Below, piece by piece: positions 17,340 to 20,265 of a DNA stretch of 64,000 nucleotides (position 1 is its first letter; every line of letters begins with the position of its first letter). Below the pieces are notes generated by a model, which saw only the letters and a list, made by a program, of their open reading frames with translations, was not told the origin of the DNA and did not search any database. The stretch comes from an uncultured Alphaproteobacteria bacterium. GTDB taxonomy: Bacteria; Pseudomonadota; Alphaproteobacteria; RF32; CAG-239. The position numbers and the translations under genes were made by a program. The stretch spans positions 3,143-67,142 of the forward strand of contig CANRJO010000004.1 in NCBI GenBank assembly GCA_947630965.1, given 5' to 3'.

Positions 17340-17508
17340 ATCAAAAAAACGCTTGCAAATTTAAGATTTTTATTTAACATAATTTTTGCCGTCTATGGGC
17401 GGTGGTGTCTCAAAAACACTTTTCTACTAAACTCCTTGTTAAGGGGAGTTTCCGACATAAGGCTTTTGCTCGAATAAGGAAGACTGGTTAGTAGCAGTTT
17501 TTGAGCTC

Positions 17509-17538
17509 CCCACCTTTTTTATAAAGGTGGTTTTCTTT
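17509..17538 (+). terminator. Rho-independent terminator-like hairpin (ccaccttt-tttat-aaaggtgg plus TTTTCTTT)
   Basis: Perfect 8-bp stem plus a T-run, ~170 bp after the addA stop and directly before the RBS of ORF 17557. Confidence 0.4.
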
Positions 17539-17556
17539 AATTAAAAGGAGCTGAAA

Positions 17557-17808
17557 ATGAAAATAAAAAACAAAGATCTGACACTTTACATCAAAAAAAC
17601 GATGATGACGCTTTTTCGTGAAGAACGTATTAAAAGGCGCGAAACTCTGGAACAAACGGCACGCAAAATTGATATTCCGCTTTATGAGCTTGATTTTTTG
17701 GAAAGCGGAAGAGGCTGTATTTCTTGGAAAAAAATGATTGATTATTTAGAAATGTACAACAAAACGCTTAAAATCACTTTAGAAGACGACCCCGATGATG
17801 AAAAATAA
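17557..17808 (+). CDS. Small XRE-family helix-turn-helix protein (83 aa)
   Basis: ETLEQTARKIDIPLYELDFLESGRGCISWKKMIDYL matches the XRE HTH pattern; strong RBS AAAGGAG; lies in the AT-rich insert. Confidence 0.5.
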   Translation: MKIKNKDLTLYIKKTMMTLFREERIKRRETLEQTARKIDIPLYELDFLESGRGCISWKKMIDYLEMYNKTLKITLEDDPDDEK

Positions 17809-17869
17809 GATCTGAAGCCCGTAAGTTTTGCGTTTTACGCAAAACTTACGGGCTAAAAGGGCTTTAGTC

Positions 17870-18301
17870 TTAACCGCTTTTGACTTTGTTTTCCTGATAA
17901 AACATTTTCAAAAACATAATCAGACCGCAAGCGTATAATATATAAGATAATATTTCTAAAAATGCGCCATATAAGCTTGTAAAAGTTTGTATGGTTTCAG
18001 AGTGTGCAAGCGTTAAATAAATAAAGCTCAGGGGTAATGATAAATAAGGCAAAATGCCAATCCACATCAAAAAAGCGGAAATCTTTGGAAATTTAGTTTT
18101 GAAATTTTCCAAATTTTTATTCTCTGGCTTAAATAAAATGATAACAATGTTATAAATAAAAAACAAAAAAACAAGAAGCCCAAATGTTTCAAAAACTACA
18201 TTATGAAACATTGTTGCTAAAATTGATAAAAGATCAATAAATCCGCCAAGTAAAAGCAGATTTTTGATTTTAGATTTCCAAATATTTTTCATTTTTTTCA
18301 T
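17870..18301 (-). CDS. Small integral membrane protein (4 predicted TM helices), unknown function
   Basis: 143 aa with four hydrophobic stretches; AT-rich codon usage. Confidence 0.5.
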   Translation of the reverse strand: MKKMKNIWKSKIKNLLLLGGFIDLLSILATMFHNVVFETFGLLVFLFFIYNIVIILFKPENKNLENFKTKFPKISAFLMWIGILPYLSLPLSFIYLTLAHSETIQTFTSLYGAFLEILSYILYACGLIMFLKMFYQENKVKSG

Positions 18302-18344
18302 TTTTTCAAGTTATCATAAAAAACACCTCTTTGAGAGGTGTTTT

Positions 18345-18752
18345 CTACCGCCCTTGAAAGCGATTATAATTGTTTGCTAATTTCCGATACAAGTTTGACA
18401 CGGGTGTCCAATGATGTTTTTTCGGCGTTGGCTTATCATCTTCATCAAGAGCATAATGATCTTTTTCTAACGGTTTAAAATTCCGTACATAGATTTCTTC
18501 TACTTGGCGGATAATATCAGCGTAAGCACGGCTCTTGTCTACAAACTCTGTATAACCACGCTCTTCTAACATGTTAAAAAACTTTTCCCGAGCTTCTATA
18601 GATGCTTCAAAATTAGGTTCAATACCACTTGGGCGAGAAAGGTTAGGTAGCCACCCTCCTATAAATCCAGACACATGAGTCATCTGAAAGTTATTGGTAT
18701 CAACAACCCAGTCTTTAATATATTCTTCGTATGTCGGTCTTCTGTAATGCAT
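18345..18752 (-). CDS. Hypothetical protein (135 aa), co-directional with and upstream of the 4-TM gene
   Basis: ORF with no recognisable motif; AT-rich. Confidence 0.4.
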   Translation of the reverse strand: MHYRRPTYEEYIKDWVVDTNNFQMTHVSGFIGGWLPNLSRPSGIEPNFEASIEAREKFFNMLEERGYTEFVDKSRAYADIIRQVEEIYVRNFKPLEKDHYALDEDDKPTPKKHHWTPVSNLYRKLANNYNRFQGR

Positions 18753-18880
18753 TTTTTACCTTCCTTGTCTGTATATATACACAATTTTTGAAATTTGTCA
18801 AGCATTTTTTAACCTTTTTAAGGTTGATTTCAGATATAAAATATTGTACAATAGATTTATATAATTTTAAGGAATCTCCA

Positions 18881-20158
18881 ATGAAAGAATATTTAGTTGA
18901 AAGCCAAATTCTTAAACAAAAAATAGATATTAATAAATTCATAAATAACTCAACTTTACAAAATTTAACCGAACCGGTGATGCTTGTATTTGGCTATGTA
19001 AATGAAAAAAATAAGGATCTGTATCAAAGTGGCAATGCCAAAGCTGTTGAACAATACAAAAACGATAACGGCAAGCAAGTTGCCCAAACTTTAAGAGATG
19101 CCAAATATAGAGCTGCATTTTATACTGAAAAAAGAGCTTCCCGCCCCAATTATATTGCTGTAACTGAAACCGGTATCATGACACCTTTTTATCAACCTGA
19201 TGAAGCCCCTCAAATTGCACGCGATATTTTAGAAACGCTTGTCCGCGCCAATGTCGCCTTACCTTTAAGCTTTGTTTGGGGAACAACCTTTGATCAGCTG
19301 ACGTACCCCGCACCACGGGATAAACAAAACTTTCGTTCGGTTTTAGGTGGAAAATTACCGCATCCTAACCCGCAACGTTTTGATGAAATTATGCAACAAC
19401 ATGGAAAAGATTTTTATAAAAGGATGCTTGGTGAAGCATTTAACAACAAGGTGGCTCGCGCAGATGTATATAAAAAGTATGAGTTTTCAAATGGAGCTTA
19501 TCATGGCGGTATCACAAGCCAGCCTTTTATTATTTTAGCCAAAAACAACCTTGAACCAAGACATCTTGTTTATGGTTCTCCAGGGTTTGATCAGGCTTAT
19601 CAATATGCTATCATAGATAATGAATCTAGAGGGAAAGACTTTAATTATGAGCATGCTTTTGGATTTATACACATTTACAAGTTAACTGGTAATATTTTAA
19701 TACTGTCTACTTCTTCTTTAGAAACAGGGGGTAGTCCTAGACTTCCTATAGATATTAATGATATGGAATTTCCTCTTTGTAAAAGCAATGTAGAATATAT
19801 TGAATCGCTCGTTTGCTTTGAAGATGGGGCTTTTTTAATCCCTAATAACGATGAAAATTGGGAAGACTTCAAAGAACTCTCTCAAGTTTCGTATTATGAT
19901 GAACGAGAAAGAATGCTCTATCGTCGTGAAAATCTAATTATGCAACAATTTTTAAATAATAACGCTGTCATCACATACAGCCCAAAAGGAAGAATGCAAA
20001 AAGAAAGCATTGATAATGACGTTAAAAATTATGTGTCTAAAGTCAGGAACAAACTGGCAAAAACAGCTCCCTTAAAAGCGCCGAAAATTTTAAAAAAGCT
20101 TGAACAAGAAGCAAGCATTTTACGTTTAAAAGCGCTTAATGAAAAAAACACAAAATAA
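18881..20158 (+). CDS. Hypothetical protein (~425 aa from the Met at 18881), divergent from 18345..18752
   Basis: Long ORF; the upstream AAGGAATCTCCAATG gives a plausible RBS for the internal Met at 18881 rather than 18731; no recognisable domain. Confidence 0.5.
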   Translation: MKEYLVESQILKQKIDINKFINNSTLQNLTEPVMLVFGYVNEKNKDLYQSGNAKAVEQYKNDNGKQVAQTLRDAKYRAAFYTEKRASRPNYIAVTETGIMTPFYQPDEAPQIARDILETLVRANVALPLSFVWGTTFDQLTYPAPRDKQNFRSVLGGKLPHPNPQRFDEIMQQHGKDFYKRMLGEAFNNKVARADVYKKYEFSNGAYHGGITSQPFIILAKNNLEPRHLVYGSPGFDQAYQYAIIDNESRGKDFNYEHAFGFIHIYKLTGNILILSTSSLETGGSPRLPIDINDMEFPLCKSNVEYIESLVCFEDGAFLIPNNDENWEDFKELSQVSYYDERERMLYRRENLIMQQFLNNNAVITYSPKGRMQKESIDNDVKNYVSKVRNKLAKTAPLKAPKILKKLEQEASILRLKALNEKNTK

Positions 20159-20265
20159 AAAAATGTCATAAAATTAAATAAAAGGTTGTAATTTTTCGGG
20201 TTCTATTTAATATTGACCCAAAAGGACCTATATATTTTAAAAATACTTTTAAGAAAGGAAAAATC

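Follow-up and report, generated by a model that had tools for sequence, protein, structure and literature searches.

We examined a 64,000-nucleotide stretch of DNA from an uncultured alphaproteobacterium of the family CAG-239 (assembly GCA_947630965.1, contig CANRJO010000004.1, positions 3,143 to 67,142; hereafter the window) and focused on the low-GC islet that separates two of its core genes, addA and trxA (Table 1). The gene order on the left flank is addB-addA, and trxA forms the right flank. The islet contains four open reading frames (ORFs), encoding a small protein with a helix-turn-helix (HTH)-like pattern, a membrane protein with four predicted transmembrane segments (4-TM protein), a soluble protein that we call the small partner and a soluble protein that we call the large protein. 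All four (83, 143, 135 and ~425 aa) were found at the places given in a first-pass annotation of this DNA, which had been made from the letters alone. Comparison with related genomes gave good support for the islet being a horizontally acquired, mosaic and accessory element in an otherwise conserved addA-trxA junction. Judged by sequence conservation, its core is a two-gene module, composed of the small partner and the large protein, that recurs in other bacteria.

Table 1. Features of the addA-trxA islet and its surroundings (positions within the window)
Feature	Position	Strand	Remarks
addA, left flank, core gene	13923..17339	+	UvrD-helicase/PDDEXK domains in orthologues
Whole low-GC islet	17340..20265		Spans addA stop codon to trxA start codon
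Lineage-variable segment with HTH-like and 4-TM ORFs	about 17361..18313		Edges approximate, from sister-lineage comparison
Structured non-coding stretch	17375..17540	+	Minimum free energy -48.5 kcal/mol, z = -2.8 versus shuffles
83-aa HTH-like ORF	17557..17808	+	AAGGAG Shine-Dalgarno sequence; XRE-style 'TLEQTARKIDIPLYELDFLESG'; soluble, no signal peptide
Perfect 18-bp inverted repeat	17816..17854		3-nt loop, 100% complementary; probable bidirectional terminator
4-TM membrane protein, 143 aa	17870..18301	-	GC 0.27; hydropathy: four hydrophobic segments
Hairpin, probable terminator of small-partner gene	18317..18347		Inverted repeat; left edge of DNA common with sister lineages
Small partner, 135 aa, soluble	18345..18752	-	Isoelectric point (pI) 6.5, 16 kDa; no signal peptide or transmembrane segment
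Divergent promoter/regulatory region, 128 nt	18753..18880		94% mean column identity, three lineages
Large protein, 425 aa, soluble	18881..20158	+	pI 8.8; no signal peptide or transmembrane segment; AAGGAA Shine-Dalgarno sequence
trxA, right flank, core gene	20266..20580	+	Thioredoxin match, E = 3e-32
VirB-type type IV secretion system cluster	32784..55413	+	12.6 kb downstream; Pfam CagE_TrbE_VirB, VirB8 (twice), CagX, TrbI, T2SSE

Two statements of the first-pass annotation, namely that about 2.9 kb of lower-GC DNA is inserted at this site and that trxA directly follows addA in relatives, were confirmed. The GC content of the islet is 0.333, compared with a mean of 0.441 elsewhere (standard deviation 0.032, minimum 0.383; z = -3.4) across 1,105 other 2,926-nt stretches of the window, and the GC content at third codon positions is 0.26–0.35 in the four islet genes versus about 0.35–0.55 in most of their neighbors, with 0.41–0.47 for addA, trxA and the downstream ATPase gene. 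The spacing between addA and trxA is 2,926 nt here, as against about 90–270 nt in nine other alphaproteobacterial loci (L009–L017). Among these, the two nearest species-representative genomes, the metagenome-assembled genome (MAG) UBA1254, whose AddA is 54% identical in its C-terminal part, and a second alphaproteobacterial MAG (46%), have ~90 nt from the addA stop codon to trxA, and the seven more distant loci have about 150–270 nt; in L009 and L010, which are more distant relatives than the two sister lineages described below, trxA comes directly after addA. The nearest named relative is the genus UBA1254 within CAG-239, a family that other papers have placed in the order RF32, a gut and rumen lineage. 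Given that the gene of the large protein has 35% GC in a lineage of 43–44% GC overall, while its homologues in ~40% GC genomes have a composition like that of their hosts, its composition fits import from a lower-GC donor. Horizontal acquisition, which had likewise been proposed in the first-pass annotation, was thus well supported by composition, by the break in synteny, by presence or absence among relatives and by the mosaic synonymous divergence described below.

Two sister lineages, L001 and L028, also have the core pair at this junction but differ from the window in the remaining gene content (Table 2), and in metagenome contigs of the same species as the window (L005–L008) we found the entire islet, variable segment included, at 99–100% identity. 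Alignment with both sister lineages begins at 18319–18335, for L001 at 18319 and hence at the hairpin that ends the small-partner gene. To the left of it, the segment 17361–18313 has no counterpart in the alignment with L001, in which ~46 nt separate addA from the terminator of the small-partner gene. The islet therefore consists of two independently evolving parts, a core module and a variable segment, and is not one cassette; this mosaic structure partly contradicts the functional guess of the first-pass annotation.

Table 2. Islet gene content in the window lineage and its two sister lineages
Lineage	HTH-like ORF	4-TM gene	Extra ORF	Small partner	Large protein
Window	Yes	Yes, 143 aa	No	135 aa	425 aa
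L001 (GCA_947588655.1)	No	No	No	141 aa	434 aa
L028	No	Yes, 149 aa	88 aa	141 aa	440 aa

The synonymous divergence (dS) differs from gene to gene within this short region. It is 0.14 for the 4-TM gene (window versus L028), 0.29–0.43 for the gene of the large protein (among the three lineages) and 0.8–1.2 for the small-partner gene (window versus the sister lineages). Between the window and L001 it reaches 1.26 for trxA and 2.1 for addA, whose products share 60% of their amino acids, with a range of 1.0–5 over all flanking core genes compared. Nucleotide identity is maximal (83–94%) within the large gene and falls off on both sides. AT-biased codon use cannot explain a 4- to 10-fold lower dS, and the simplest reading of these mosaic values is that cassette exchange at the addA-trxA site took place between lineages that had already split. 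The ratio of nonsynonymous to synonymous divergence (dN/dS) is 0.17 for the 4-TM gene, 0.23–0.30 for the small gene and 0.36–0.43 for the large gene, compared with 0.03–0.17 for most neighboring core genes, indicating that the three islet genes with such data are under purifying selection that is more relaxed than that on most of the neighboring core genes.

We found no tRNA gene in the window, no significant direct or inverted repeats bounding the islet and no integrase gene at the islet; the sole integrase-family gene of the window (8086–8988) lies 8.4 kb away and has a homologue in the sister lineage upstream of the same gene block. Since the islet carries no integrase, tRNA, insertion sequence (IS) end or flanking repeat, turnover by homologous recombination, with replacement of cassettes at a fixed intergenic site, would be the likely route. 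The islet resembles classical genomic islands and integrative elements in its low GC content, its break in synteny, its variable presence in close relatives and the mosaic ages of its parts, but differs from them in being just 2.9 kb long and in lacking an integrase, a tRNA target, direct repeats and IS ends.

The core pair was recognizable well beyond the sister lineages. In five (L020, L021, L022, L023 and L029) of the six distant contexts with enough upstream DNA, a homologue of the small partner lies directly upstream of the large gene; the clade of L024 has no partner. The upstream proteins of these five contexts are 106–168 aa long and carry the N-terminal signature of the partner, which reads 'YEEYIKDWVVD...MTHVSGF' in the window and 'FKQDWEIDAGQCMARHKSGV', 'FIENWEINVQNKSARHKSGI' and 'DWLVDSEHLKATHKSGI' in distant members. 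A profile-profile comparison of the partners with hhalign gave E = 1.2e-4, with a probability of just 55% over 24 aligned columns, and the upstream protein of L029, which was part of no training set, matched the profile of the window clade with E = 2.6e-6. Divergent transcription of the pair is seen in four lineages (the window clade, L021, L023 and L029). L020 and L022 have both genes in one orientation and with a near or actual overlap, an arrangement suggestive of coupled expression. A toxin-antitoxin or toxin-immunity pair would likewise be expected to consist of neighboring genes that occur together in different lineages, as those of the module do.

The intergenic region shared by the divergent genes is more conserved than the coding DNA on both sides of it and far more conserved than synonymous sites (dS 0.3–1.2 in the flanking genes). 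It contains a promoter-like TTGATT-17-TACAAT on the plus strand, pointing toward the large gene, as well as a TTGACA-type -35 element on the minus strand, pointing toward the small gene, and a AACCTTnnnAAGGTT palindrome, both of the latter read directly from the sequence. Besides the putative promoters, the region could hold an operator, for which the palindrome is a candidate, or a small transcript.

For the small partner, the AlphaFold2 model had a predicted local distance difference test score (pLDDT) of 81, with residues 1–95 above 90, and comprised a short helix, then an antiparallel sheet of four strands and a further pair of helices, the longer of which spans ~30 residues, followed by a low-confidence basic tail that ends in an invariant GR. 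The last 30 residues carry a net charge of +6. A similar fold was not found in the PDB or BFVD, and a sequence and profile search of the PDB gave no match for the partner family, for which eight close homologous clusters were identified.

The large protein was taken to start at 18881 rather than at the first ATG of its ORF (18731), because its homologues begin at the same methionine and AAGGAA precedes this position; good Shine-Dalgarno sequences were found for three of the four islet genes. A word-indexed search returned six close homologues, and an exhaustive profile search of 1.84 billion representatives extended the family to 51 clusters, 28 of them at E ≤ 1e-10. Homologues were absent from JGI metagenome scans and from plasmids, phages and viral contigs (including IMG/VR), and neither protein of the module has a paralogue elsewhere in the window. 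Full-length family members are 390–1,533 aa long, with the conserved region always N-terminal (roughly residues 20–370). In an alignment of 27 members, E225, E281 and E296 are invariant, and G98 (motif TGIQTPF), P162 (HPNP), G209, A239 and R348-R349 are nearly so, a pattern which suggests that the 425-aa protein may be an enzyme. The scan of 48 family members against Pfam and NCBIfam yielded only low-complexity FH1-like or BimA-like matches in one or two members, among them proline-rich FH1-like tracts in two (E = 1.7e-8), and the family profile had no match among PDB sequences. By these comparisons the family of the large protein is rare, unannotated and previously undescribed.

Beyond the conserved region, the long homologues carry C-terminal repeat-rich stretches that look like leucine-rich repeats by eye and for which Pfam gives one weak LRR_5 match, and one of the long homologues has an extra domain with HExxH. 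Across the family, Q, R, K and T are overrepresented 1.6–1.7-fold in the last 40 residues, D, E and aromatic residues are underrepresented there, and the C-terminal residue is R or K in 27 of 47 members. A motif of the type 'LR-x-G-x-N-x-LL' recurs 30–48 residues before the C-terminus, in its strict form in 12 of the 47; the window version is 'ILRLKALN'. With a net charge of +5 over its last 30 residues, the large protein belongs, like its partner, to the five window proteins (of 44) with the most positive charge in this part.

The two genes of the variable segment differ in their distribution. The 4-TM protein, for which one homologous cluster was found among 5.8 billion, is encoded by a gene that is 93% identical to its L028 copy in nucleotides and 95% in amino acids, while the genes adjoining it are far more diverged between the same two lineages, and it thus behaves as a mobile accessory cassette. 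The perfect 18-bp hairpin next to it, which lies between the convergent HTH-like and 4-TM genes and probably serves both as a terminator, travels with the 4-TM gene in L028. Beyond that gene in L028 (L028 positions 1–207), in the place that the HTH-like ORF takes in the window, there are several copies of 'GTCATCC(C/T)GAA' that resemble a small repeat element; this motif was not in significant excess in the window. The HTH-like ORF was seen only in the species of the window and is the sole islet gene without comparative support: it had no match in NCBIfam, PHROG or PDB sequences, and relatives were not found in JGI metagenomes. Its HTH-like pattern was seen by eye only. The best Pfam match, HTH_25, remained below the cut-off (E = 0.033; 14.4 bits versus 24.6) and no XRE-type profile matched significantly, so the label 'XRE-type HTH' given in the first-pass annotation is a weak one. 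Given that this ORF is missing from both sister lineages, in which the core pair and the intergenic region are intact, it is not an obligatory regulator of the pair. Of the architecture claimed earlier, a regulator with an attached module, the conserved pair of small partner and large protein was borne out, and the XRE regulator found no positive support. The best explanation is that the HTH-like and 4-TM genes form cassettes of their own, exchanged more recently and not needed by the core module. Upstream of the HTH-like ORF, the structured non-coding stretch (~165 nt and species-specific) ends just before the gene in a terminator-like hairpin (17510–17530) plus a T-run. It could represent a small RNA or a long 3' untranslated region of addA; Rfam gave zero matches in the islet or in the related loci, this stretch included.

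With regard to function, searches of Pfam, NCBIfam and PHROGs returned nothing significant for the four islet proteins, and PADLOC-DB v2 returned no match at E ≤ 1; together with the PDB sequence searches, this confirmed the first-pass statement that homology is not detectable. We tentatively favor, at somewhat less than an even chance, the reading that the 425-aa protein is a secreted enzyme, probably delivered by a type IV secretion system (T4SS), with the small partner as its cognate chaperone, inhibitor or co-substrate. This reading builds on the presence of a T4SS nearby, the effector-like extensions of homologues, an ankyrin-repeat protein next to one of them, the basic tails and the lack of a signal peptide or transmembrane segment. 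The T4SS cluster of the window encodes VirB4, two VirB8 proteins, VirB9/CagX, a giant protein with a TrbI/VirB10 domain and VirB11, and the ankyrin-repeat protein (Ank_2, E = 1e-26) adjoins the 1,533-aa homologue of the large protein in the MAG GCA_965320285.1 (L027, 5047–5616). In the proposed mechanism, the strong and highly conserved back-to-back promoter region would drive the 135-aa partner in one direction and the 425-aa protein in the other; the latter, an enzyme whose activity would depend on its three invariant glutamates, would leave the cell through the VirB-type T4SS of the genome by means of its basic, polar C-terminal tail; and the small partner would bind it in the producer cell, be it as a chaperone, as an inhibitor or immunity protein, or as a co-substrate.

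Pairs of T4SS effectors and partners are known from the X-Tfe/X-Tfi proteins of the Xanthomonadales, from the neighboring effectors and metaeffectors of Legionella and from VirE2 of Agrobacterium with its small chaperone VirE1. As in such pairs, the small gene of the module adjoins a larger soluble protein, the module lies in an isolated islet of unusual composition with housekeeping genes around it, the genome also encodes a VirB-type T4SS, the proteins end in basic, polar tails, and the family is fast-evolving and patchy. Unlike such pairs, however, the module has no XVIPCD, BID or other recognized translocation domain; unlike most X-Tfi immunity proteins, the small partner has no signal peptide or lipobox; unlike VirE1, it is not small and acidic (pI 6.5, 16 kDa); and no sequence or fold similarity links the module to any known effector.

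Several further points speak against secretion of the 425-aa protein by the T4SS. The case for it is drawn from context and is circumstantial throughout, and we would place secretion itself just on the doubtful side. No recognized effector, toxin or enzyme domain was found in the large protein of the window or in its homologues, a VirD4-type coupling protein was not found among the window ORFs scanned, and the C-terminal 'signal' is, as far as residue composition can tell, a compositional tendency only, without a defined signal domain. The AlphaFold2 model of the large protein, built from six sequences, was unusable (pLDDT 35) and its Foldseek matches were meaningless. Toxin-immunity and toxin-antitoxin pairs just as typically have a small gene immediately before a larger one. 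Two leads to an effector-like activity also failed to find support. Motifs reminiscent of ADP-ribosyltransferases (Y-x-G, in some members LYRGG; Y-A-S/T-P; E-T-x-V) were not aligned when the 27-member profile was compared by hhalign with the PARP1 catalytic domain (0.3% probability) and with cholera toxin A1 (0.2%), a test made insensitive by the fact that each target was a single, approximate sequence, and full-length scans of the 48 members gave no match to a Pfam ADP-ribosyltransferase domain. Likewise, the idea of a WH2-type, actin-binding function for the 'LRxGxNxLL' tail beside the proline-rich tracts found no Pfam WH2 match in any of 10 tails.

Alternatively, the large protein could be a cytoplasmic enzyme with a dedicated small regulator or assembly factor, serving niche physiology, neither secreted nor toxic, and simply happening to be mobile, a scenario that we consider possible but rather improbable. 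Both proteins are soluble and have no export signals, regulator-target pairs typically show such a divergent arrangement around a very conserved spacer, the neighbors are housekeeping genes, and in roughly 40% GC genomes the gene has the host-like composition of a resident gene. However, such an enzyme fits poorly with the rarity and patchiness of the family (51 clusters among the 1.84 billion representatives), with its fast evolution relative to core genes and with the partner having no recognizable DNA-binding fold, and the fusion to long repeat-rich or proline-rich tails as well as the recent inter-lineage exchange would be unusual for metabolic enzymes. An explanation of the islet as non-functional remnants, that is, AT-rich junk or decaying ORFs picked up by the gene caller, might appeal to the very low GC content, the lack of database matches and the confinement of two ORFs to one or two lineages; yet it is hardly credible in view of dN/dS values of 0.17–0.43 for three of the four genes, frames that are intact in every lineage, Shine-Dalgarno sequences in three genes, the confidently predicted fold of the small partner and the conserved promoters.

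The first-pass annotation had preferred a toxin/immunity, abortive-infection or other defence cassette, and in such an intracellular toxin-antitoxin, toxin-immunity or anti-phage system the 425-aa protein would be a toxic enzyme kept in check by the 135-aa partner, with the HTH-like and membrane proteins as regulator and accessory. The conservation of a two-gene module with the small gene directly upstream over distant lineages would agree with this, as would the near or actual overlap of the genes in L020 and L022, which fits coupled expression, the mobility, low GC content and elevated dN/dS of the module, and the invariant acidic residues that suggest an enzyme. Nevertheless, we regard it as unlikely, and the searches yielded no positive support for it: none of the four proteins matched PADLOC, no toxin or antitoxin domain of Pfam or NCBIfam was found in the 48 members, plasmids, phages and viral contigs carry no members of the family, and the neighbors of family members are housekeeping genes in every context, not defence islands or adjoining defence genes. 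Toxin-antitoxin operons are not usually transcribed divergently, as this pair is in four lineages; both sister lineages lack the HTH ORF; and a conserved N-terminal domain with variable C-terminal extensions is the reverse of what polymorphic toxins display. The likeness to type II toxin-antitoxin and polymorphic toxin-immunity systems extends to the two-gene unit, the conserved small partner, the mobility and the putative catalytic acidic residues, and, for most type II operons, to the upstream position of the small gene, which is that of an antitoxin. The often divergent transcription of the module sets it apart from these operons, and it further differs from type II and polymorphic systems in that the large protein has its conserved domain at the N-terminus, in the lack of toxin, antitoxin and PADLOC matches and in its absence from plasmids and phages.

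To return to a secreted enzyme with a partner, the pair might found a new family of this kind, with an unrecognized fold, three catalytic glutamates, an RR motif, an 'LR-x-G-x-N-x-LL'-type tail and mobility as a cassette, although we think this doubtful. That such a family would be common to gut alphaproteobacteria of RF32/CAG-239 and to other bacteria, one of them with an ankyrin-repeat neighbor, belongs to the same reading and seems to us no less questionable. RF32/CAG-239 bacteria, although uncultured, are common in the guts of humans, ruminants and birds, where their role is largely obscure. What is new here is a conserved and unannotated module of partner and large protein with a hyper-conserved promoter region and signs of recent exchange, in a host that carries a T4SS. 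If the large protein is an effector, it would offer a testable handle on how these bacteria interact with their hosts or competitors and the first functional clue to the cargo of their VirB-type T4SS, and it would bring a new enzyme family and a new partner fold, in other words a new effector class with its own chaperone or immunity protein. If it is not, the islet would still provide a clean example of recombination-driven turnover of cassettes at a fixed intergenic site without mobile-element machinery.

Several additional observations concern the surroundings of the module. The ankyrin-repeat protein that adjoins the 1,533-aa homologue has no domain listed in its precomputed annotation. The T4SS cluster has several unusual components: the two VirB8 paralogues are located at 42819–43574 and 43929–44669, and four ORFs between VirB4 and VirB8 (35296–42809; 515, 232, 416 and 1,337 aa) had no Pfam match; in Rickettsiales clusters, the position between these two genes is occupied by VirB6 paralogues. 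VirB9 is followed by a 1,262-aa protein with beta-flower/RHS repeats (46419–50207), and in the 1,437-aa protein at 50119–54432 the TrbI/VirB10 domain is joined to many beta-flower repeats. Directly after VirB11 lies a 1,475-aa ORF (55535–59962) without a significant Pfam match and with only a weak teneurin-like EGF match; it stands where one might expect to find a coupling protein or a large substrate. Just past the cluster, at 60241–61389, a Fic/DOC-family protein combines Fic_N with a C-terminal winged-helix-type domain, and this protein may act as a toxin or be another substrate for secretion.

Between trxA and the T4SS cluster, a type IVb (Tcp/Bfp-like) pilus cluster (20692–32091) follows trxA directly and encodes a 320-aa T2SSE ATPase, a PilS/bundlin-like pilin, T2SSF, a 551-aa T2SSE ATPase, PilO, a secretin and TcpQ. 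In UBA1254 the same pilus cluster is found after trxA, but an extra 292-aa gene replaces that of the 320-aa ATPase, which means that the right side of trxA is variable too. On the left side, calling from the first ATG gives addB and addA ORFs that share 53 nt (13923–13975); AddA has 1,123 aa in the same-species contigs compared with 1,138 aa here, and the true start of addA may lie further downstream. AddA of the sister lineage L001 (L001 5643–9374), at 1,243 aa versus these 1,138 aa, contains pentapeptide-repeat Pfam matches inside the helicase-nuclease, an unusual insertion.

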